Position numbers and translations under genes: made by a program. From a virus, in IMG/VR virus record IMGVR_UViG_3300037755_000476: a stretch of 64,000 bases of DNA. One strand, written 5' to 3'. Positions 1 through 48,114 of the stretch are shown here, in pieces (within the stretch, counting starts at the first letter, position 1; each line of letters starts with the position of its first letter). A model generated the notes under the pieces. That model saw nothing but the letters and a program-made list of their open reading frames with translations. It did no database searches and had not been told where the DNA came from.

Positions 1-299
1 AAGGGCTTTGCCCCCTTCCCTGCGGAATTACAGGATAATTAAAGGTTTTAACGCCTTCCATACCTATAGAGTTTATAACGCTTGTTTGCGCTAGGTAAGA
101 TTGCAGTATTTCAATGAACTTGTATTGATTCGTCCAACACTTGCGATTTTGCTCGGTGTTATGCAGACCCTAGCGGTTACTTGTACATGACCTACTTTAT
201 TCGGGTTGCACTTTCACGTTATGCTAGCTATACACATACGCCTGTTTTATAATATCGCTTGTAAAGAACGTGTTGTACAGCGATTCGCCAACAACACCC

Positions 300-307
300 C
301 AAACATA
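300..307 (-). promoter_or_regulatory. Bacteroidota -7 promoter box (TATGTTTG), pointing out of the window
   Basis: Reverse complement of caaacata matches TAnnTTTG. Confidence 0.5.
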
Positions 308-984
308 CGGCAACTTTCCCGAAAAACAATAAAAAAATCGATGAAATGCAGGAAAATCCGATGAAATGTAGTCAAAGGGCGACTTAAGGATGCATGATGC
401 GGGAGCGGGCGGGCGTGGTAATATACTCCCGTGTACAGGCTGGGATACTACTTACGTGCGTATGCGGGAATATAGCCACGATAGGGGCAGGTCATGGCGT
501 TGGTAGATTGTGCCGGGGTGGGTCAAGGCCATCATAGACAGAATCTATAGCAGCAATAACTGCCCATAGACAAAACACATAGAAGGGCAATTTCCTACCC
601 TAATAAAGTTAGTTAAATACCTGTTTAACACACTTTACTTATACATAAACAAGCTATAAAAAACTGGCACAAGGATACACAAGGTATTCGTATAAGCTAT
701 TGGAACACAGATAGTTAGGCCATAGAAAAGCTAAAACTTTTGACAGAAAAATATCAGAACGTACCCCCGCCCCCTCGCAGAAATTCGATTTCCTTTTCGG
801 CCGCGAGCCCTTAAAATATACTATGACTTAAAGCGGTTTAAGCGAAATATCTCTGTGAATTTTTGAAAAATCATGCAAGTTTTAACATTCTTTAACAATG
901 ACGGATTTTATACCGAATTTTTGACCTAAAAATAGACCCAAAAACAGTTCTATTTTAATCTTTTTAAAAATAATTTGATATGAG

Positions 985-1020
985 TTTGGTTTGTATTATA
1001 ATTTTACTTATATTTGTACC
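985..1020 (+). promoter_or_regulatory. Bacteroidota sigmaA promoter for tRNA block 1 (36-bp element identical to 5001-5036)
   Basis: TTTG 985-988, 20-nt spacer, TATATTTG 1009-1016; exact copy at 5001-5036. Confidence 0.85.
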
Positions 1021-1046
1021 TGAACGATTAAAAAGAAACATTTTCA

Positions 1047-1127
1047 ATGTACTCAACAGTCATCATAGCGACAGTAATCAGAACCGGAGGTAAGGATAAA
1101 CCCTCGGGGAGGATTTTTATGCTGTAA
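1047..1127 (+). CDS. Leader peptide 1 (MYSTVIIATVIRTGGKDKPSGRIFML), putative attenuator
   Basis: 26-aa ORF between promoter and terminator; codons ACA, GTA, ATC, ATA, AGA, GGA, GAT, ATG match block 1 tRNAs. Confidence 0.8.
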   Translation: MYSTVIIATVIRTGGKDKPSGRIFML

Positions 1128-1153
1128 TGTCGATAGTACATTAAATTACACAT

Positions 1154-1186
1154 AAACCTTCTCCCTAAAAAGAGAGGGTTTTTTAT
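1154..1186 (+). terminator. Intrinsic terminator/attenuator 1
   Basis: Stem aaaccttctc/gagagggttt followed by a T run. Confidence 0.85.
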
Positions 1187-1276
1187 TGGCCTGTTAGTCT
1201 AGCTGACGAAAACTTGCCTAATAATAAGCCTTCCAACTAATAATCGCTATTATAAGCAGATTTAAGAGTACAATAT

Positions 1277-1450
1277 ATGAGCAGAACGTACAGAAAAAGT
1301 AGAAACGGCTTAAAATTTAGAGAAGGAAGGTATGTCGAAGGAGTTTTTTATAAGTGCCGGTGTGAATATTGTACTGGAATAGATAAGAAGATTCTTGAGG
1401 ATAAAATCCTTGACAAGGAAATGAAACAGGAGTGTAGCTTAATTGGTTAA
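1277..1450 (+). CDS. Small basic protein with CxCxxC (MSRTYRK..., 57 aa)
   Basis: Manually translated ORF; 3' end overlaps tRNA-Ile. Confidence 0.5.
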   Translation: MSRTYRKSRNGLKFREGRYVEGVFYKCRCEYCTGIDKKILEDKILDKEMKQECSLIG

Positions 1451-1501
1451 AGTACTCAGCTGATACCTGAGTGAGTGCAAGTTCGAATCTTGCCACTCCT
1501 A
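1428..1501 (+). tRNA. tRNA-Ile(GAU)
   Basis: Cloverleaf; anticodon arm ctcag-ctGATac-ctgag; TTCGAAT T-loop. Confidence 0.92.
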
Positions 1502-1507
1502 CATAAT

Positions 1508-1586
1508 GCAGAATTCGCATAGTCCGGTCGATTGCGCCTACCTTCCGAGCAGGATATCATCGTGGGTTCAAATCCCACATTCTGCT
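1508..1586 (+). tRNA. tRNA-Gly(UCC)
   Basis: Acceptor gcagaat/attctgc; loop ctTCCga; U73. Confidence 0.88.
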
Positions 1587-1599
1587 CTAATTAAAACAC

Positions 1600-1673
1600 T
1601 GCGGGGTGGACTGGAGAGGCTCCAGCTCAGTCTCATAAGCTGAATGACGTGGGTTCGATTCCCACTCCCGCAA
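1600..1673 (+). tRNA. tRNA with CAU anticodon (elongator Met or Ile2)
   Basis: tcagt-ctCATaa-gctga; lacks the three G-C pairs typical of initiator tRNA. Confidence 0.85.
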
Positions 1674-1690
1674 CTAACAAAACATTAAAT

Positions 1691-2053
1691 ATGAGTGAAA
1701 TAGAAGAAGAGTTAAGAGAATGTAAAACACACGGCCTTGTTTTATATAAAAAATATAGCGAAAGCGAAAATAAAAACGAGTATTCTTTCCGTTGTATGAA
1801 ATGTAGGTCTGAGTATTTAAAGAAAAAATATCAAGAGAGAAAGAAAAGAGCAATTGACTATAAAGGAGGAAAATGTTGTAAATGCGGATATAATAAATGC
1901 GACGCCGCTTTAGAGTTTCATCACTTAGACCCCTTTTCTAAAGACATAACGCCCTCAAAAACTTTAAATAGAAGTTGGGACAACTGTAAAAAAGAGTTAG
2001 ATAAATGTATATTAGTTTGCTCTAATTGTCACAGGGAAATACATAATAGATAG
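1691..2053 (+). CDS. HNH endonuclease with Zn fingers inside tRNA block 1
   Basis: CxxC pairs, LEFHH, CxNCHxEIH; ATG at 1691 (the longer ORF call overlaps a tRNA). Confidence 0.88.
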   Translation: MSEIEEELRECKTHGLVLYKKYSESENKNEYSFRCMKCRSEYLKKKYQERKKRAIDYKGGKCCKCGYNKCDAALEFHHLDPFSKDITPSKTLNRSWDNCKKELDKCILVCSNCHREIHNR

Positions 2054-2118
2054 TGTAGCTTAAAGGTAAAGTGCTTGTCTGTCACACAAGAGAACGGGGG
2101 TCAGTACCCCTACTAGCT
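2049..2118 (+). tRNA. tRNA-Asp(GUC), degenerate
   Basis: cttgt-ctGTCac-acaag; aberrant T-loop (gtcagta), acceptor mismatch; overlaps the HNH stop codon. Confidence 0.65.
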
Positions 2119-2163
2119 GCGAGTTTTTTGGAAGTGCTCTGAACTATATCAAAACTTCCGCAT

Positions 2164-2237
2164 GCTTCTCTGGCTGAATAGGAAATGGCACCTCACTTGT
2201 AATGAGGAGGATACGGGTTCGATTCCTGTGGGGAGCT
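2164..2237 (+). tRNA. tRNA-Thr(UGU)
   Basis: cctca-ctTGTaa-tgagg; TTCGATT T-loop. Confidence 0.92.
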
Positions 2238-2238
2238 C

Positions 2239-2343
2239 AACAGTACCTGAGGCACCTCTCTTTAAGAAGTGTCCCAGCTCAGGTCTTTTGTTTTAACAGT
2301 ACCCGAGCCACCTCTAGTCAGTATCTAAGTGCCCGGGTCTTTT
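2239..2343 (+). ncRNA. Two tandem copies of an unknown hairpin RNA motif (2239-2289, 2295-2343)
   Basis: Shared AACAGTACCYGAGSCACCTCT..AAGTG..GGTCTTTT with compensatory stem changes. Confidence 0.55.
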
Positions 2344-2399
2344 CCAAGGGAGTCAACTACGTGCGTTTTAAAACACAAGCTTAAAGGGCTCCCTTTTTT

Positions 2400-2472
2400 G
2401 CCCCTTTCGTCTAGCGGCTAAGGCTCTTGTTTTACATGCAAGCAATCGTAGGTTCGAGTCCTACAGGGGGTA
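2400..2472 (+). tRNA. tRNA-Val(UAC), irregular anticodon loop
   Basis: gcccctt/agggggt acceptor; cttg-ttTACatg-caag (8-nt loop); TTCGAGT T-loop. Confidence 0.75.
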
Positions 2473-2481
2473 CTAAAATAT

Positions 2482-2561
2482 GCAGGGGTAGCCACAGCAA
2501 TCTTCTAAATTGCTAAGTGTAATCGGAGCTGAAAATGTGGGTTCGAATCCCCCTCCCTGTT
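2482..2561 (+). tRNA. D-armless tRNA-Arg(UCU)-like RNA with long variable region
   Basis: gcagggg/tccctgt acceptor; only 7 nt before a 6-bp stem agcaat-ctTCTaa-attgct; 22-nt variable region; TTCGAAT T-loop. Confidence 0.65.
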
Positions 2562-2566
2562 CAAAT

Positions 2567-2636
2567 TGGGGTAAGCCTAGGTAGGTTAGCGGACCTTATA
2601 TGTCCGTGGGGACGGGTTCGATTCCCTCTACCCCAA
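2567..2636 (+). tRNA. tRNA-Ile(UAU)-like RNA with minimal D-arm
   Basis: tggggta/tacccca acceptor; cggac-ctTATat-gtccg; bulged T-stem. Confidence 0.6.
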
Positions 2637-2640
2637 CAAA

Positions 2641-2672
2641 TTTGGTAGTTACAAAAGAATTTCGTATCTTTG
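2641..2672 (+). promoter_or_regulatory. Bacteroidota promoter
   Basis: TTTG...TATCTTTG, 3 nt before ATG 2676. Confidence 0.75.
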
Positions 2673-2675
2673 ACC

Positions 2676-2960
2676 ATGACGGATTTTATACCTAAAAAGA
2701 CCCAACAGGAGATACACGAAATCAACTTCCAGAACGCCGAGGAGCTGTTACTGTACCACAAGTACCTGTACTACGAGCTCTCCAAGCCGATGGTAACCGA
2801 CCAACACTTCGACCAGCTCGACCAATATGCAAGAAGACTTTCCCAGTACGTATGCCCCAAGCGCTTTCCACCGGAGGAATACGTACACGAGACAATGGTC
2901 GGCTTTGATAAAAATCACCGGTTGTGGCCGAAAGTGAAAGAGAGATTTGGAATAAAATAA
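2676..2960 (+). CDS. Stand-alone NAD-dependent DNA ligase domain Ia-like protein
   Basis: HKYLYYELSKPMVTDQHFDQL resembles the LigA Ia motif (H-YY...P-ISD-EYD-L); no ligase core follows. Confidence 0.65.
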   Translation: MTDFIPKKTQQEIHEINFQNAEELLLYHKYLYYELSKPMVTDQHFDQLDQYARRLSQYVCPKRFPPEEYVHETMVGFDKNHRLWPKVKERFGIK

Positions 2961-2976
2961 AAAAATTGTATAAAAG

Positions 2977-3007
2977 TTTGTAGGTATCAAAAAAAGTTGT
3001 ATATTAG
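2977..3007 (+). promoter_or_regulatory. Promoter for tRNA block 2
   Basis: TTTG 2977-2980, 19-nt spacer, TATATTAG (variant -7 box). Confidence 0.7.
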
Positions 3008-3011
3008 CAGC

Positions 3012-3101
3012 ATGAAAACATTAAGCACATATAATTCCTTTTGGTATTCGAATTGCTCCGGCAATGTTGAAGGGGATTCCTATGTCTACAAACTCATATA
3101 A
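3012..3101 (+). CDS. Leader peptide 2 (MKTLSTYNSFWYSNCSGNVEGDSYVYKLI), putative attenuator
   Basis: 29-aa ORF; core NSFWYSNCS matches block 2 tRNAs (Ser x2, Asn, Trp, Phe, Cys). Confidence 0.82.
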   Translation: MKTLSTYNSFWYSNCSGNVEGDSYVYKLI

Positions 3102-3131
3102 CTATTTTCGTTTTTTGATTTTGATTCATTT

Positions 3132-3161
3132 AACCCTTCGTCTCCAAACGAGGGGTTTTTT
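3132..3161 (+). terminator. Intrinsic terminator/attenuator 2
   Basis: Stem aacccttcg/cgaggggtt plus T run. Confidence 0.88.
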
Positions 3162-3171
3162 GTTTTTATAC

Positions 3172-3255
3172 TGCAACGTAAAGCCAGTGGTTCTGGCAGA
3201 CTGTCTCTAAAACAGTTATTGTAAAAGGGGAGTGGTTCGATTCCGCACGGTGCAA
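3172..3255 (+). tRNA. Amber suppressor tRNA (anticodon CUA), type II-like
   Basis: actgt-ctCTAaa-acagt (anticodon 3207-3209); D-stem gccag/ctggc; long variable region; A73. Confidence 0.8.
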
Positions 3256-3259
3256 CAAT

Positions 3260-3344
3260 TAGTGGGTAGCGCAAAGGTTGCGAACGGGATTTGAACCCCC
3301 GGCTATCGGGTGACTGGTAAGGGTTCGATTCCTTTACCCACTAC
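3260..3344 (+). tRNA. tRNA-Ser(UGA)
   Basis: Loop ttTGAac; paired long variable arm; acceptor+T helix can be 13 bp. Confidence 0.75.
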
Positions 3345-3348
3345 AAAC

Positions 3349-3435
3349 AGAGGGGTGGCAGAGAGGCTTATTGCAGCAGGTTGCTAACTTGCCGAGGTAT
3401 AAACACTTCCGAGGGTTCAAATCCCTTCCCCTCTT
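3349..3435 (+). tRNA. tRNA-Ser(GCU)
   Basis: gcagg-ttGCTaa-cttgc; long variable arm. Confidence 0.92.
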
Positions 3436-3441
3436 CTAAAC

Positions 3442-3527
3442 GACTAGGTTGCCGTAGTGGCCGAACGGTCTGGGCTGTTAACCCAGTGGATAATATCCCA
3501 TCGTAGGTTCGAATCCTACCCTAGTCG
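3442..3527 (+). tRNA. tRNA-Asn(GUU) with long variable arm
   Basis: ctggg-ctGTTaa-cccag; variable arm tggataatatccca; G73. Confidence 0.88.
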
Positions 3528-3535
3528 CTTAAAAT

Positions 3536-3608
3536 GCTTCTCAGCACAATGGTGTGCAGCCGGTCTCCAAAACCGTGCAAGGGCAAGGTTCGATTCCTTG
3601 GGGTCGCG
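3536..3608 (+). tRNA. tRNA-Trp(CCA), mismatched acceptor stem
   Basis: cggt-ctCCAaa-accg; D-stem gcac/gtgc; T-arm intact. Confidence 0.75.
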
Positions 3609-3611
3609 CAG

Positions 3612-3719
3612 ATAAAAACAAGCTTATGCCGTGAAACGGTGTGATGGTCGCTGGATGAAAGCAACGCACTTAATGACCGTGCCCAAAATTGATAAAATTT
3701 CCAGATGCTTGTTTTTTAT
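3612..3719 (+). ncRNA. Unknown structured (possibly pseudoknotted) RNA between tRNA-Trp and tRNA-Phe
   Basis: Closing stem aaaaacaagc/gcttgttttt, GAAA-capped hairpin, ggtc/gacc, gcac/gtgc and ctgga/tccag pairings. Confidence 0.5.
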
Positions 3720-3793
3720 GGGGTTGTAGCTGAGGTGGTAATTAGCGCTGGGCTGAAAACTCAGAGACGGGGGTTCGAATCCCCCCTCCCCCA
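3720..3793 (+). tRNA. tRNA-Phe(GAA)
   Basis: ctggg-ctGAAaa-ctcag; two acceptor mismatches. Confidence 0.82.
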
Positions 3794-3847
3794 CTAAGAG
3801 TTGAAGGGGTATAAAAACAGTTCAACTCTTTTTCGTATATTTGTTAT

Positions 3848-4273
3848 ATGAAAATATGCACAACTTGTAATCAAAGTAAAACACTAGATAATTTTGATTT
3901 TAGAAATAAGGCTAAAAATAAAAGACGAGGCTCTTGTAAAAAGTGTCTTAAAGAGTATTACAGACTAAGGTATAAGAAAGTAGGTAAAGTAAAAGAACAA
4001 ATAAATGCGAGGGGTAAAAGGTGGAGAGAGTATTTATACAAGTTTGTAAATAGATATAAAAGATTGGTTGGGTGCTCTAAGTGTAAAGATAAGAGAGATT
4101 ATGTATTAGAATTTCATCACGTCAGGGATAAGAAAACAGAAATCTGTAGAGCTATATCTAGAGATTTCTCTATGTCTAACCTTAAAGAGGAGATGAGAAA
4201 GTGTGTAGTACTCTGCGCAAATTGCCACAAAGAGCTTCATTATCTAGAACGTTGCGGTACTCAAGAGGATTAG
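3848..4273 (+). CDS. HNH endonuclease with Zn fingers inside tRNA block 2
   Basis: CTTC/CKKC, LEFHH, LCANCHKELH; own TATATTTG promoter at 3836-3843. Confidence 0.88.
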   Translation: MKICTTCNQSKTLDNFDFRNKAKNKRRGSCKKCLKEYYRLRYKKVGKVKEQINARGKRWREYLYKFVNRYKRLVGCSKCKDKRDYVLEFHHVRDKKTEICRAISRDFSMSNLKEEMRKCVVLCANCHKELHYLERCGTQED

Positions 4274-4324
4274 GGGAACTGGCTACAAACTTGTTATTCG
4301 GAGGTTAAAGTCCTGTACGAAATT
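4251..4324 (+). pseudogene. Degenerate tRNA-Cys-like gene (loop ctACAaa)
   Basis: tactcaagagg D-region typical of Cys/Tyr tRNAs; weak acceptor and T stems; overlaps the HNH 3' end. Confidence 0.5.
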
Positions 4325-4395
4325 CTATAGCTTATGCCCCAATTCCATTTAAATTCTTTTTTGTACCTTTACAACTTAACATTAAAAATGTAACA

Positions 4396-4725
4396 ATGGC
4401 AAGAAGAACAACAAAAAACGGGCCGGGGGACAAGGACAAGAAAAAAAAATCCACCTCCAAAGCTAACGACACGATAAGCCCGTACTACGCAGCGGTAAAA
4501 TATGGAAGCTCTCTCGAAAAGAATGCGGCCAAGAAGTCCATGGCAGGATACTTCTCCGGCTCCCCTGCCAACAAAAGAGGAGAGTCCGAGAGCCAGCACA
4601 TGTCCAGAATGGCCAAAAAAGATACTATCCCCAGTGCCAGAAAAGCGAGGGGGGTATATCAGGCAGGTAACTTTGGTCCCAGCATCGGCAAAAAAGCATC
4701 CTCAACCGTAAAAAAGAAAAAGTAA
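4396..4725 (+). CDS. Lys-rich basic protein, unknown function
   Basis: 109-aa ORF with AT-rich upstream region. Confidence 0.65.
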   Translation: MARRTTKNGPGDKDKKKKSTSKANDTISPYYAAVKYGSSLEKNAAKKSMAGYFSGSPANKRGESESQHMSRMAKKDTIPSARKARGVYQAGNFGPSIGKKASSTVKKKK

Positions 4726-4726
4726 T

Positions 4727-4999
4727 ATGAAAAATCTATTCTTAGGACTTGCACTATTGATTTCGTCTATAGTGTTCTCACAGGAGCCCGTTCTGGACAG
4801 CATACAAGTTTTTAAACCTATGCCGGAGCCTGTACTGATAGCCACTATATACGAATACGAAACGTTCTTCGAGAAACTTACAGAAGTGTCCGACAGGACA
4901 GGTGCCAATGAGGTTATCTGCGTATTTTTCTACAAAGAGGATAAAGACTCTCCCCAAAAAACTCTGGTAAAAACTTTTATTAGAAAAAAACAACGATAA
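4727..4999 (+). CDS. Hypothetical exported protein
   Basis: N-terminal signal peptide MKNLFLGLALLISSIVFSQ. Confidence 0.65.
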   Translation: MKNLFLGLALLISSIVFSQEPVLDSIQVFKPMPEPVLIATIYEYETFFEKLTEVSDRTGANEVICVFFYKEDKDSPQKTLVKTFIRKKQR

Positions 5000-5000
5000 A

Positions 5001-5036
5001 TTTGGTTTGTATTATAATTTTACTTATATTTGTACC
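5001..5036 (+). promoter_or_regulatory. Promoter for tRNA block 3 (identical to 985-1020)
   Basis: TTTG...TATATTTG 5025-5032; exact 36-bp repeat. Confidence 0.85.
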
Positions 5037-5039
5037 ATC

Positions 5040-5117
5040 ATGAAAACAACACGATTTGTTGCGGTACGCAACTTACATACACAGCTACTAGAGCAACCGG
5101 AAATAATCGTCTGGTAG
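5040..5117 (+). CDS. Leader peptide 3 (MKTTRFVAVRNLHTQLLEQPEIIVW), putative attenuator
   Basis: 25-aa ORF; core RNLHTQLLEQPE matches block 3 tRNAs (Pro, Glu, Gln, His, Leu-UAG, Arg-ACG). Confidence 0.85.
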   Translation: MKTTRFVAVRNLHTQLLEQPEIIVW

Positions 5118-5159
5118 GGATAGGTATGGTGTGATGTAAGAAACTTATATTATCGTATT

Positions 5160-5194
5160 AAGCCTCCCCGGAAACGTGGGGGCTTTTTTATTTT
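5160..5194 (+). terminator. Intrinsic terminator/attenuator 3
   Basis: aagcctcc..gaaa..gggggctt plus T run, directly before tRNA-Pro. Confidence 0.88.
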
Positions 5195-5268
5195 AGGGGA
5201 GTGACAAAATTGGTGACGTGCCGGCCTTGGAAGCCGGAGATATGTAGGTTCGAGGCCTACCTCCCCTA
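5195..5268 (+). tRNA. tRNA-Pro(UGG)
   Basis: ccggc-ctTGGaa-gccgg. Confidence 0.9.
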
Positions 5269-5316
5269 CAAAGAGACGTTTGGCCGTTTAACTCTTTAAA
5301 AAACAATGGCCCTAAT

Positions 5317-5389
5317 GCTACCATCGTCTAAATGGTCAGGACACAAGACTTTCAATCTTGAAATCGGGTTTCGATTACCCGTGGTAGTA
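5317..5389 (+). tRNA. tRNA-Glu(UUC)
   Basis: caaga-ctTTCaa-tcttg. Confidence 0.92.
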
Positions 5390-5399
5390 CGAATATAAT

Positions 5400-5470
5400 T
5401 GGAGTATGATGTAGTGGTAACATGGTTGGTTTTGAGCCAACTCTCGGAGGTTCGACCCCTTCTGCTCCAA
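5400..5470 (+). tRNA. tRNA-Gln(UUG)
   Basis: gttgg-ttTTGag-ccaac; U1-A72 acceptor. Confidence 0.9.
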
Positions 5471-5477
5471 CTAACAT

Positions 5478-5551
5478 GGTGTCATTGTTGTAAACGGTGA
5501 GCATAGTAGGTTGTGACCTTGCAGGTCTCGGTTCGAATCCGAGGTGACACA
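5478..5551 (+). tRNA. tRNA-His(GUG)
   Basis: gtagg-ttGTGac-cttgc; G-1 encoded. Confidence 0.9.
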
Positions 5552-5558
5552 CATATTT

Positions 5559-5640
5559 ACCGGAGTGACGTAAAAGCGAATGGCAGAGTATCTTGGCTTA
5601 GACCCAAGGGTTTTTGTGGGTTCGAGTCCCACCTCCGGTA
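5559..5640 (+). tRNA. tRNA-Leu(UAG), expanded D-region and short variable loop
   Basis: cttgg-ctTAGac-ccaag; accggag/ctccggt acceptor. Confidence 0.82.
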
Positions 5641-5645
5641 CAAAT

Positions 5646-5716
5646 ACGCCCGTAGTTCAGCGGAAGAATACCAAGCTACGAACTTGGAGACGGGGTTTCG
5701 AATACTCCCGGGCGTT
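5646..5716 (+). tRNA. tRNA-Arg(ACG)
   Basis: ccaag-ctACGaa-cttgg. Confidence 0.92.
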
Positions 5717-5854
5717 CTATACCAATTTCGTACTATTGGGCGTCTTGAAAGAGAGGGCGTCCTTTATCTTTGAATCCTTCCTTCTGTACAGCCTCGCTAC
5801 CTTTTTATTGGGGTCGGAGGCCTTTTCCGATATTTTATGTTTTCTGTAGTTCAT
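5717..5854 (-). CDS. Small basic protein (MNYRKHKIS...KIKDALSFKTPNSTKLV, 45 aa), convergent on tRNA block 3
   Basis: Manual translation; stop codon abuts the tRNA-Arg 3' end. Confidence 0.5.
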   Translation of the reverse strand: MNYRKHKISEKASDPNKKVARLYRRKDSKIKDALSFKTPNSTKLV

Positions 5855-5891
5855 AGTTGCAAGGTAATGATTTTTTTGTTATATTGTATTC

Positions 5892-6386
5892 ATGATAAAA
5901 GGATTTATATTACTCGCCCTTACACTGACCGTCTTCGGTTTCACCTTCGACCACGGCCCCATTAACTACGTCCAAGAACAAAAGATGGGAAGGCCCCACG
6001 TAGAGGCTCGACTACTGAAATACTTTAATGAGCTGGACTCTATCTACGTCTCCAAAGGCATCGTAATAGGCTACTCCAAGGTATCCAGCATACAGAGTAT
6101 GGACTCACTCCCGTACGACCCGGTGTTGCAAGGAAAGTCTTTGGAAGGCCTGTATAATAAGCACACAAATCAAGTGTACATAAACACCTATCAATTGGAT
6201 GCCTTTTTTAAGGGCAAGTACAAAGAGAAGATTTTGCTTATAATGGCACATGAGGTAGGCCACTCACAAGGTATGGGCCACTCTAATGACACCACTTCCA
6301 TAATGCACTACAGTAGTAAGTACGTTTTGGCCCTGCTGGATAACAATAAAATTGAGGACCTTGTGAGCGAGATGTATTTAAATTGA
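5892..6386 (+). CDS. Secreted matrixin/metzincin-type zinc metalloprotease
   Basis: HEVGHSQGMGH (HExxHxxGxxH), Met-turn SIMH, signal peptide. Confidence 0.85.
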   Translation: MIKGFILLALTLTVFGFTFDHGPINYVQEQKMGRPHVEARLLKYFNELDSIYVSKGIVIGYSKVSSIQSMDSLPYDPVLQGKSLEGLYNKHTNQVYINTYQLDAFFKGKYKEKILLIMAHEVGHSQGMGHSNDTTSIMHYSSKYVLALLDNNKIEDLVSEMYLN

Positions 6387-6492
6387 CATTTTTAGCCTTT
6401 GATATCTTCGGCCCAAATTATTTATACTATTCCTTCTCTTCAAAGTTCTACCCCTCTTCGGGGGGGAGGTTCTATAAGTATTACTTATGTAG

Positions 6493-6552
6493 TAAGTAAC
6501 TACTATATAAGTACCTATTAAATATTTACTACTTTATTAAGTAACTACTATA
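6493..6552. repeat. 15-bp direct repeat TAAGTAACTACTATA x2 in an AT-rich non-coding tract
   Basis: Copies at 6493-6507 and 6538-6552. Confidence 0.7.
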
Positions 6553-7084
6553 ATAGTATTGAAACGATATCTAACGGGGAACGCTACGCTTTAAACAAAA
6601 ATAAGGGTTTTCCTTATATTGCTTTGTCGTAACGCTCGTTCATTTGTCTTGAAACTGACTCTGAACGGGTGTGGGTATATCTCCCAAGGGTGTTTAGTCC
6701 TCTACCTCCCTGTTGCTAACACTAACACGACCCCCGCGGGCCCAAAGATGCTTGGCCCCCGTCAACTGGCCCCATGCTACAAGGAATACTTGTTTTAAGA
6801 CGGTCGGATACTTCGGGCAGTCCTACTACCTCTTTCTCCTTGTTCCCCTAGCTTTTTAAGTGGTCTGGGTAAATTGTCACTCCGTAATGTCAATAAGTAC
6901 AAATATACAAAAAATATTCTAATCACCAAACAATACCACCATTATTTTTATAAAAAATTCACAGTCCCTCATAACTCCCTGATTTACTGCACGATAAAAA
7001 ATAATTTAAAAATAATTACCATAAAGTTTGTTGAAACCGATTATTTGTTCTATATTTGCTGTGAACGAAAATAGAAGAGAGGTA

Positions 7085-7222
7085 TGAAACTAATAATAAT
7101 GGCCCCCACAGTAGACCTTTACCTCCGACAGGGCCTTGCCCACGAGCTTAGGGACATGGAGCTCGGGAGCTCGGCAGTGGTTGCCAAACTAACATATTTG
7201 TTAATAGAGTTCAAGAACTAAT
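7085..7222 (+). CDS. Small hypothetical protein (MKLIIMAPT..., 45 aa)
   Basis: ORF downstream of the promoter at 7027-7058. Confidence 0.4.
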
Positions 7223-7242
7223 GATTATAAGTTTTAAAATAA

Positions 7243-7968
7243 ATGAATTTCAATATGTATAAAGATAAAAAATTTATAGGTTATGTACGTGCCAGTACCG
7301 AGTCTCAAAGGGGGGGTATTGGATTGGAGGTCCAAAGGGAGTCCATTAATAAGTTTATAGCTCAGTATGGGGGAACAGTCGTGGCTATAGAGGAAGAAAT
7401 AATCTCCGGAGGAGCGGCAGTTCGGGACGGATTTGACCGTGCCCTGCAACTCTGTAAGTTCCACGGAGCTGTACTTATCGTCCACCGTATCGACAGGCTG
7501 TCCCGCGCCGGCTTCATGACCATAGCGAGGCTGGACGAAGAAGGCATCCCTTTTATTGAAGCCGACTCCCCTCACGATACCACCTTCTCAAAACACATCA
7601 AGTTCCTAGTCGCCAAGGAAGAGAAGGATAAGACAAGGCAGCGTGTAAAGGATGCTTTGGGACAAATTAAGGGAAATATCAATAGGGACGGTTTTCACAT
7701 CACTAAGGAAGGCAAAAGGATAACGTCCTTAGGTAATCCCCAGAACCTCTCGGATGAGGCTAGGGAGCGTTCCAAGAGGACTAGGAGGGCCAAGGCCATA
7801 GCCGACCAGAACAACGTCAGGGCGTACGCTATGGCGTCTAGGATGAGGTCGGAAAACTCTTTGAAGCAGATTGCGGATGCGTTGAACAAAGGGGGCTTTA
7901 AGACTTCAAGGGGAAACAGGTTTTACCCCATTCAGGTGTCCAATCTTATAGACCTGTACGAGAAATGA
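7243..7968 (+). CDS. Serine recombinase (resolvase catalytic domain plus short Recombinase domain)
   Basis: GYVRAST..Q, LIVHRIDRLSR, SLKQIADALN..GFKTSRG. Confidence 0.9.
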   Translation: MNFNMYKDKKFIGYVRASTESQRGGIGLEVQRESINKFIAQYGGTVVAIEEEIISGGAAVRDGFDRALQLCKFHGAVLIVHRIDRLSRAGFMTIARLDEEGIPFIEADSPHDTTFSKHIKFLVAKEEKDKTRQRVKDALGQIKGNINRDGFHITKEGKRITSLGNPQNLSDEARERSKRTRRAKAIADQNNVRAYAMASRMRSENSLKQIADALNKGGFKTSRGNRFYPIQVSNLIDLYEK

Positions 7969-8168
7969 GGGTAGATAGGTACACACTTGACGAATTTTCG
8001 TCCGCGTTCATGGAGGCTCTTGAGGAGGTGACCAGTTTTGAGGACGGGCAGGACTTTATAGATTACTCTTTGGACATAGTGTCAAGGGCCAAGGAAAAGC
8101 TTGCCCGTGGGTCAGCGGACGGTCTTGGCAGAATATGCCGGGGTGGGGCCGGAAAGACGGAAGTATAA
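7965..8168 (+). CDS. Hypothetical protein
   Basis: ATGA overlap with the recombinase stop. Confidence 0.55.
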   Translation: MRVDRYTLDEFSSAFMEALEEVTSFEDGQDFIDYSLDIVSRAKEKLARGSADGLGRICRGGAGKTEV

Positions 8169-47494: not shown

Positions 47495-47773
47495 CTACAC
47501 TGAACCAAACAGGCTCAACATCTTTACCCTGTCCAAAGCGTTCTCCTCACGTATCAACTGCTCCTGCCCCCTTTTTACCTTATCGGACCCGTGCTCCTTT
47601 ATCCTCCTGACCACTTTTTCCATTACCTCTACCCTTTCTTCGTGCGAAAGATTGCCCCTATCCTTCCAAGAGAAGAATAGGAGGTCCTCTAACATGTTCT
47701 TTTCCTTGGTAACGTCCTGTATATCATTCAGCCTCTTAAAGGCCTTTACTCTGTTGAACACTCCCATAATCAT
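47495..47773 (-). CDS. Hypothetical protein
   Basis: 92-aa ORF. Confidence 0.55.
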   Translation of the reverse strand: MIMGVFNRVKAFKRLNDIQDVTKEKNMLEDLLFFSWKDRGNLSHEERVEVMEKVVRRIKEHGSDKVKRGQEQLIREENALDRVKMLSLFGSV

Positions 47774-48114
47774 CGTTTATTACACTTGTCCAAGAAATCG
47801 TGACATTGTTCCACTACCCATCCCAATAAATAACACTGGGGCTCGTCGTTGACCACGTCCATTTTAATACAGCAGTTTGCCTAGATAAAACCTACACAAT
47901 GTAGCGCTTCGTGGGCCACTACGCTAGGGGGAGAATCTTTGGTCAGGGCTGTATAGTAGTGGTCATATCCTTGTGAATCCTTCGTGGCAGTACAGAACGC
48001 CCCTCCATCAAAATTAGAATCCGGCTCTATCTTCTTTGCCTCCCCATTAAGGTCTTCCGACACTATTATATGAGGGGTCCCGAAATAAATCGGGACCTTT
48101 ATAGTCTTCTTCAT
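47770..48114 (-). CDS. HExxH protein interrupted by an in-frame TAG at 47881-47883 (readthrough candidate or nonsense mutant)
   Basis: VAHEALHCVGFI*ANCCIKMDVVNDEPQCYLLGWVVEQC; readthrough frame ends in an ATGA overlap with the next gene. Confidence 0.7.

Follow-up and report, generated by a model that had tools for sequence, protein, structure and literature searches.

Positions 5002-5194 of this phage DNA are best read as a transcription attenuator of the leader-peptide type that controls entry into the six block 3 tRNA genes, with the TAG-GGA-TAG at the end of its leader a product of indels and not an evolved target of the phage's tRNA with anticodon CUA. We give this reading a probability of about 0.7. 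The window (the whole stretch of 64,000 nucleotides that was analysed) is from IMG/VR record IMGVR_UViG_3300037755_000476. An earlier note had proposed an attenuator at this place, built of a sensor of cognate codons, a GGGA-UA-GGU antiterminator strand and a terminator that gates block 3, and had added that amber suppression at the leader's double stop could couple block 3 to block 2. Comparison with eight other lineages supports the attenuator and speaks against the coupling.

The window belongs to a flavobacterial (Flavobacteriia) phage that is Pervagoviridae-like and has the Cellulophaga phages phi38:1 and Calle_1 as kin: its structural region shares 68% DNA identity with phi38:1, phi40:1 and Calle_1-3, all Pervagoviridae of the genus Callevirus. 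Its closest match, the 73.6-kb IMG/VR record G001, is 98% identical across the attenuator 3 region. We compared nine lineages: the window, G001, L129, L130, L132, L137, L138, L139, and the clade of Calle_1, phi38:1 and L131. The L contigs were drawn from homologs of the serine recombinase encoded 1.5 kb downstream, which form a graded series. On the seven L129-L132 and L137-L139 contigs, block 3 always lies behind a short ORF and a terminator. No tRNA blocks lay near the recombinase homologs at 58% identity or less (L133-L136) or near that of L140. IMG/VR was queried with three probes: the 94-aa protein encoded between blocks 1 and 2, a structural-protein alignment, and a 14-mer from leader 2. 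They returned only G001, phi38:1 and Calle_1; all further matches to the 14-mer were random. The parts of the element in the window are as follows.

5002-5038, plus strand: promoter copy, identical to 984-1020 (repeat family D5), which heads block 1
5007-5010 and 5027-5034, plus strand: putative promoter boxes of Bacteroidota type, -33 TTTG and -7 TATATTTG
5040-5117, plus strand: leader ORF 3, 25 codons, peptide MKTTRFVAVRNLHTQLLEQPEIIVW, stop TAG; homologous leaders in the eight other lineages
5052-5102, plus strand: sensor codons CGA, CGC, (TTA), CAT, CAG, CTA, CTA, GAG, CAA, CCG, GAA, read by block 3 tRNAs
5054-5071, plus strand: 18-nt in-frame insertion (alignment A5 and fold), only in the window/G001 lineage
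5096-5101 with 5110-5115, plus strand: local hairpin ACCGGA/UCUGGU, pairing the Pro codon CCG with sequence just 5' of the stop; pair probability 0.92-0.96 in the full leader
5115-5123, plus strand: TAG GGA TAG (TAGs at 5115-5117 and 5121-5123), inside the antiterminator strand; window and G001 only
5117-5169, plus strand: predicted antiterminator, GGG (5117-5119) and AGGU (5122-5125) with the terminator 5' arm (5162-5169); inner hairpin at about 5126-5160
5162-5194, plus strand: intrinsic terminator, stem-loop 5162-5183 (-12.5 kcal/mol) and U tract 5184-5194, ending one base before tRNA-Pro (5195)
5195-5717, plus strand: tRNA block 3, six tRNA genes

By the consensus of Bacteroidetes promoters, the promoter is taken to be Bacteroidota-type, and relatives carry TAnnTTTG-like boxes 4-7 nt 5' of the leader ATG. 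Since the ATG of the window lies only 5 nt past the -7 box, the leader mRNA is probably leaderless or nearly so. Promoter, short ORF and terminator abut tRNA-Pro, and space for a further promoter is absent. Blocks 1 and 2 are preceded by the same layout, and that of leader 3 is retained in 9/9 lineages. As a side observation, the start of a 96-aa gene (2670-2960) is duplicated 5' of promoter 1 (889-917 versus 2667-2695, 90% over 29 nt), the copy ending at a stop; it is probably a remnant of the duplication or recombination by which the promoter-leader modules were spread.

The leader 3 peptides diverge among lineages, while a run of R/L/H/Q/E/P codons persists and the ORF stays open from its ATG in every one of them. 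The starts of the homologous peptides, with the stop codon of each, are these.

L139: MKTTRLHTQLLEQPRISGG..., stop TAA
L129: MKTTRLHTQLLEQPINSGG..., stop TAA
L130: MKTTRLHTQHLEQPRISGG..., stop TAA
L132: MNTVRLHTLLEQPEKSGG..., stop TAA
L137: MKTMRLHLEQRPEQPIILG..., stop TAA
L138: MTNFIHQQPIEQPTERSGG..., stop TGA
Calle_1, phi38:1 and L131: MNARLLHQEPLEQLRLPS..., stop TAG (single)

The insertion at 5054-5071 yields a second CGN Arg codon and a perfect 6-bp hairpin, GUUGCG-GUA-CGCAAC (5058-5072). This hairpin could be an RNA polymerase pause site, or mere insertion.

Sensor codons and the downstream tRNA genes

The genes of block 3 in the window are listed here.

5195-5269, plus strand: tRNA-Pro(UGG)
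5317-5390, plus strand: tRNA-Glu(UUC)
5400-5471, plus strand: tRNA-Gln(UUG)
5479-5552, plus strand: tRNA-His(GUG)
5559-5645, plus strand: tRNA-Leu(UAG), missed by default ARAGORN; it aligns with the tRNA-Leu(UAG) of relatives, loop TTAGA
5646-5717, plus strand: tRNA-Arg(ACG)

All six have cognate codons in the leader, tRNA-Leu(UAG) included, as had been claimed, and the core of the sensor, from CAG to GAA, consists of seven consecutive cognate codons. How specific is this match? We counted codons under strict wobble rules, with the codon usage of the window as background. Of the 24 codons in leader 3, 11 are read by block 3 tRNAs, compared with 19% in the background (p = 3e-3), and the two other frames hold 5 and 3. 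With relaxed ARAGORN settings, block 1 was found in most lineages to encode Lys, Ile, Gly, Met, Asp, Thr, Val, Arg-UCU and Ile-UAU tRNAs; block 2, Tyr, Ser, Ser, Asn, Trp, Phe and Cys; and block 3, Pro, Glu, Gln, His, Leu-UAG, Leu-UAA and Arg-ACG. The codons of a leader's own block, and not those of the other blocks, were enriched in 16 of 16 leader-by-lineage cases (p = 3e-2 to 7e-7, values that are not independent across lineages because the lineages share descent). Summed over the 16 leaders, own-block codons number 212 in frame and 85 and 66 out of frame, and in 14 of the 16 cases the observed count was reached by at most 4% of composition shuffles. In every lineage the enrichment of leader 3 concerns Pro, Glu, Gln, His, Leu and Arg-ACG codons and is confined to the reading frame.

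This dependence on frame, on the leader's own block and on more than composition leaves very little room for the view that the ORF is untranslated, the region giving a small terminated RNA or acting as a plain leaky terminator and the codon match arising by coincidence or as a composition effect. It is true that a strong Shine-Dalgarno signal is missing in Bacteroidota, so that no ribosome-binding site could be scored, and that expression is known from assembled contigs only. Nevertheless, an ATG-started frame that is open in all lineages despite their divergence is hard to square with such a view, and we give it hardly any credence.

The match extends to isoacceptors. Leader 3 uses CGA and CGC, read by tRNA-Arg(ACG), and leader 1 uses AGA and AGG, read by the tRNA-Arg(UCU) of block 1; CGA and CGC are rare, each making up 3% of Arg codons in phage genes. 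Among the Leu codons, the window, which has tRNA-Leu(UAG) only, carries CTA CTA at codons 16-17 (5085-5090), while relatives that have tRNA-Leu(UAA) as well carry xxx TTA there. This difference weakly favours the proposal, made in the earlier note, that the Leu-CTA tandem serves as a sensor.

The match is imperfect in places. In the window there is one TTA codon and no tRNA-Leu(UAA) to read it, and a Thr codon, ACA, lies within the sensor core. L138 has only tRNA-Pro and tRNA-Glu between leader 3 and a peptidase-like gene (L138:1139-1435), and its leader retains His, Gln and Arg codons for which that contig carries no tRNA, and lacks Leu codons. Such a pattern suggests that tRNA genes were lost or moved recently, a change that the leader has only partly tracked. 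Block 3 is also shorter in G001, because it has no counterpart of window 5539-5696 (the 3' end of tRNA-His, all of tRNA-Leu(UAG) and the start of tRNA-Arg); leader 3 has stayed the same there.

The other two blocks of the window each contain an HNH endonuclease gene, at 1649-2053 (block 1) and 3848-4273 (block 2). The latter lies between tRNA-Phe and a degenerate tRNA that resembles tRNA-Cys (4251-4325, anticodon called as ACA at a low threshold); the tRNA-Phe of G001 is followed directly by tRNA-Cys(GCA).

Terminator, antiterminator and ribosome position

The terminator is present in all nine lineages, at -10.5 to -15.9 kcal/mol, and its stem varies by compensatory pairs. We counted these pairs from RNAduplex and RNAfold output, as MAFFT aligned the terminator region poorly. 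An Rfam covariance-model scan of positions 1-8000 gave only tRNA-type matches and no leader, T-box or riboswitch family. The leader 3 RNA folds more stably than its shuffles (z = -3.0).

The pairing of GGGA-UA-GGU with GCCUCCC in the terminator arm, as the earlier note proposed it, is predicted by RNAfold when the transcript is cut before the terminator 3' arm, and GGG(5117-5119):CCC(5167-5169) together with AGGU(5122-5125):GCCU(5162-5165) amounts to -9.3 kcal/mol. Shuffles of the upstream sequence do as well as the bare duplex (z = -0.1), and the antiterminator of the window depends on the stacked inner hairpin. In seven relatives the corresponding duplex reaches -12.4 to -14.6 kcal/mol (z = -1.9 to -3.6). 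The anti strand in five of these, L129, L130, L132, L138 and L139, is (U)CGGGAGG(C/A) (in L138, CGGAGGUU), directly past the sensor run (z = -2.5 to -3.6), and Calle_1 and phi38:1 have another anti strand at the same position. Both sides of the antiterminator helix have changed at two positions; L130 has A for C in the anti strand, U for G in the 5' arm and A for C in the 3' arm, all three altered in concert.

Upstream of this helix the leader has competing folds. CTACTA (5085-5090) and TGGTAG (5112-5117) lie where the earlier note had placed them, and their RNA can form 6 bp including one G-U, worth -4.1 kcal/mol by itself. While the nascent transcript extends no further than 5130, this pairing sits within an 8-bp helix at a probability of about 0.95, but in the full leader its probability falls to about 0.04. 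In the full leader it gives way to ACCGGA(5096-5101):UCUGGU(5110-5115) and to pairing of CUACU with 5123-5128, which occupies part of the antiterminator strand. A counterpart of the local hairpin, CCGA/UCGG, is retained in relatives (read by eye).

We modelled ribosome position by blocking a 30-nt footprint and folding the transcript up to the terminator loop. With the A site on the sensor codons, the terminator 5' arm was paired upstream in all lineages (P = 0.65-0.98), and from the last codons of the sensor run onward this pairing fell to P = 0.1-0.45. In the window it went from 0.64-0.76 to 0.25 at codons 23-26, where the ribosome reaches the TAG. The stop of the window/G001 lineage abuts the anti strand, and that of L139, L129 and L130 lies 10-14 codons further on. 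For several relatives, a ribosome at the distal stop codon leaves the anti strand exposed again in the equilibrium model; hence kinetics must matter there.

What, then, happened in the window/G001 lineage? Compared with L139, L129 and L130, indels round the anti strand have turned GGGAGG into GGUAGGGAUAGGU, thereby shifting the frame and creating both TAGs. These indels raise the question of whether attenuator 3 of the window and G001 is decaying or has been re-set, its antiterminator weakened, its terminator mostly constitutive and block 3 expressed by leak-through only. The duplex of -9.3 kcal/mol (z = -0.1), set against -12.4 to -14.6 in relatives, would fit such decay, as would the 18-nt insertion with the shifted stop and the absence from G001 of the block 3 stretch noted above. 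Several features of the window point the other way. Five of its block 3 tRNA genes still score 45-61 bits, and the ribosome-position model still switches. Moreover, the sensor run and the anti strand have shifted together, which preserves the geometry, and CTA CTA fits the sole remaining Leu tRNA. We therefore consider decay unlikely and retain the functional attenuator as the preferred reading.

RNA-seq of phi38:1-infected cells was seen as assembled Logan contigs, which break at the repeated promoter. Two infection runs have a short contig over leader 3. A third has one contig that leads from leader 3 into tRNA-Pro and skips 34 nt of the terminator hairpin (L008:7329-7362, phi38:1); the hairpin is covered by no assembled contig in the other three runs. 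The skip resembles a jump, by reverse transcriptase or by the assembler, over a stable stem of a transcript that had read through. The contigs are thus compatible with a structured, partly read-through terminator, which we take as a hint only. Elsewhere in phi38:1, between tRNA-Ile and tRNA-Gly (L008:4922-5042), separate 60-nt contigs may represent a stable small RNA or a processing product; contig depth is unsuited to ranking regions. The phi38:1 transcriptome paper makes no mention of terminators or promoters, and the tRNAs discussed there are host genes.

The double amber stop and the CUA tRNA

The first gene of block 2 in the window encodes a tRNA whose anticodon matches the amber codon.

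3172-3256, plus strand: tRNA with anticodon CUA, ortholog of the Calle_1/phi38:1 tRNA-Tyr(GUA) with G34C; first gene of block 2

It is almost the same as the tRNA in the corresponding place of Calle_1 and phi38:1, from which it differs by a compensated D-stem change and by G34C, and is predicted from its sequence to be a supF-like amber suppressor private to the window phage. The slot is mosaic among lineages, G001 resembling L132 there and the window resembling Calle_1. Leader 2 (3012-3101) retains four Tyr codons (TAT three times, TAC once); with its first block 2 tRNA now CUA, the phage therefore no longer supplies the tRNA-Tyr(GUA) for which its own leader 2 calls.

The leader does end TGG TAG GGA TAG, and when the TAGs are read through the frame does remain open across the terminator to a TGA (5202-5204) inside tRNA-Pro, as the earlier note had described. 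From this it had been argued that the CUA tRNA suppresses both TAGs, so that ribosomes cross the antiterminator and terminator to that TGA, block the hairpin and couple block 3 to block 2. In its favour, the tRNA seems intact and has a tRNA-Tyr as its ortholog, the frame is open, and terminators are known to be suppressible by translation through them, as PMC5021804 also states.

The comparison tells a different story. The anticodon at this slot is GTA in all eight other lineages. In G001 the TAG-GGA-TAG is present together with a different tRNA-Tyr(GTA), and its U tract is one T shorter, which shifts the post-TAG frame. Leader 3 stops at TAA in five relatives and at TGA in one, all with equal architecture, an outcome that the earlier note had itself named as refuting the coupling. 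Across the nine lineages, then, stop type is not conserved and does not go together with a suppressor tRNA in relatives, contrary to what suppressor-dependent readthrough would predict. The 26-codon open frame after the second TAG is within chance (open in 14% of shuffles), and the TAGs lie within a strand that is constrained by pairing. Two TAGs in tandem would also cut readthrough to the square of the suppression efficiency rather than raise it.

One gene elsewhere could be taken as favouring the suppressor. A 114-codon HExxH gene on the minus strand (47773-48114) has an in-frame TAG at 47881-47883, where G001, with 97% protein identity, has TGG and an open frame; working suppression would make such a TAG tolerable. 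We found no other genuine amber difference between the window and G001, and this one co-occurs with the private CUA tRNA. Two other translated amber candidates from the same comparison were frame artefacts of gapped alignment, and the remaining ones were judged by position to be antisense or alternative-frame ORFs. Genome-wide reassignment of TAG was ruled out: read in code 11 the long genes are intact, and TAG serves as the stop of several (5 of 42 long ORFs).

Taken at its fullest, the coupling would mean that a private G34C made an attenuator-controlled tRNA-Tyr into an amber suppressor and so built a two-tier cascade of tRNA operons with feed-forward from block 2 to block 3. We regard this scenario as highly improbable, and the suppression of both TAGs across the terminator as equally so. 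Were it true, a stop codon and a suppressor would together build a feed-forward cascade between tRNA operons. To judge from the alignments, TAG-GGA-TAG looks like a lineage-specific by-product of small indels and not a suppressor-driven switch, though incidental readthrough of the double TAG may occur in the window phage. This negative outcome keeps a coincidental feature out of the attenuator model.

Proposed control and related systems

The sequences themselves show the parts of the element, their conservation, a codon match that depends on frame, and helices that covary. Translation of the leader ORF, stalling and switching, as we infer them, would proceed as follows. Host RNA polymerase would start at the promoter, and the 25-codon ORF would be translated almost from the 5' end of the transcript. 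A ribosome that runs freely to the TAG at 5115-5117 would place its footprint over the G-rich strand (5117-5125); with that strand covered, the hairpin at 5162-5183 would form and transcription would stop in the U tract one base before tRNA-Pro. If instead decoding of the Arg-CGN, His, Gln, Leu-CUA, Glu or Pro codons (5052-5102) were slow, the ribosome would stall upstream, the G-rich strand would pair with the terminator 5' arm and polymerase would continue into the tRNA genes. Because stalling on cognate codons would open the operon, the quantity sensed would be the supply of the operon's own tRNA species, and the outcome would be homeostatic control of phage tRNA output. The phage probably makes block 3 tRNAs only when ribosomes run short of them.

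Amino-acid operons are controlled by attenuators such as trpL, hisL, leuL, thrL and pheL, and the ilvGMEDA and thr leaders are multivalent. Attenuator 3 resembles these in its short ORF with many regulatory codons, in its intrinsic terminator, in the alternative helix that takes up the terminator 5' arm and in a decision that would be made by ribosome position. Like the ilv leader it would sense several amino acids at once, and as in the trp leader the window's stop abuts the anti strand. Unlike them, it would regulate tRNA genes and not biosynthetic enzymes, its sensor codons mirror the anticodons of the operon's products to the isoacceptor level (CGN versus AGR), and it is found in a Bacteroidota phage, on an mRNA that is probably leaderless, with no match to an Rfam leader.

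The pheST attenuator (pheM leader) and T-box riboswitches also use termination to report on tRNA or its charging state. However, pheM senses one amino acid and controls a synthetase, and T-box RNAs bind uncharged tRNA directly without translation (positions 1-8000 hold no T-box match); both act on synthetase genes, whereas attenuator 3 would control the tRNA genes themselves. The CUA tRNA has its own parallel in E. coli supF (su3, a tRNA-Tyr changed from GUA to CUA), in that it carries the equivalent G34C relative to its Calle_1/phi38:1 ortholog. Unlike supF, it is phage-encoded and stands first in an attenuator-controlled block, and its suppressor role is a prediction. Our literature search found no description of leader-peptide attenuation of tRNA genes. 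The logic is that of classical attenuation; what appears to be new is that the regulated genes are the very tRNAs for which the sensor codons call.

The tRNA genes of phages are mostly viewed either as constitutive aids to codon usage or as stand-ins for host tRNAs that defence nucleases have destroyed. The attenuator idea is directly testable, because the cultured relatives phi38:1 and Calle_1 carry the element, and compact codon-specific sensors of this kind might find use in synthetic biology. It would bring a new class of genes, and the phages of Bacteroidota, under a regulatory circuit known from bacterial textbooks. A test peptide written in the codons of the downstream tRNAs would be a direct, self-correcting sensor of tRNA supply, and the phage would make its tRNA set only when decoding of the matching codons slows.
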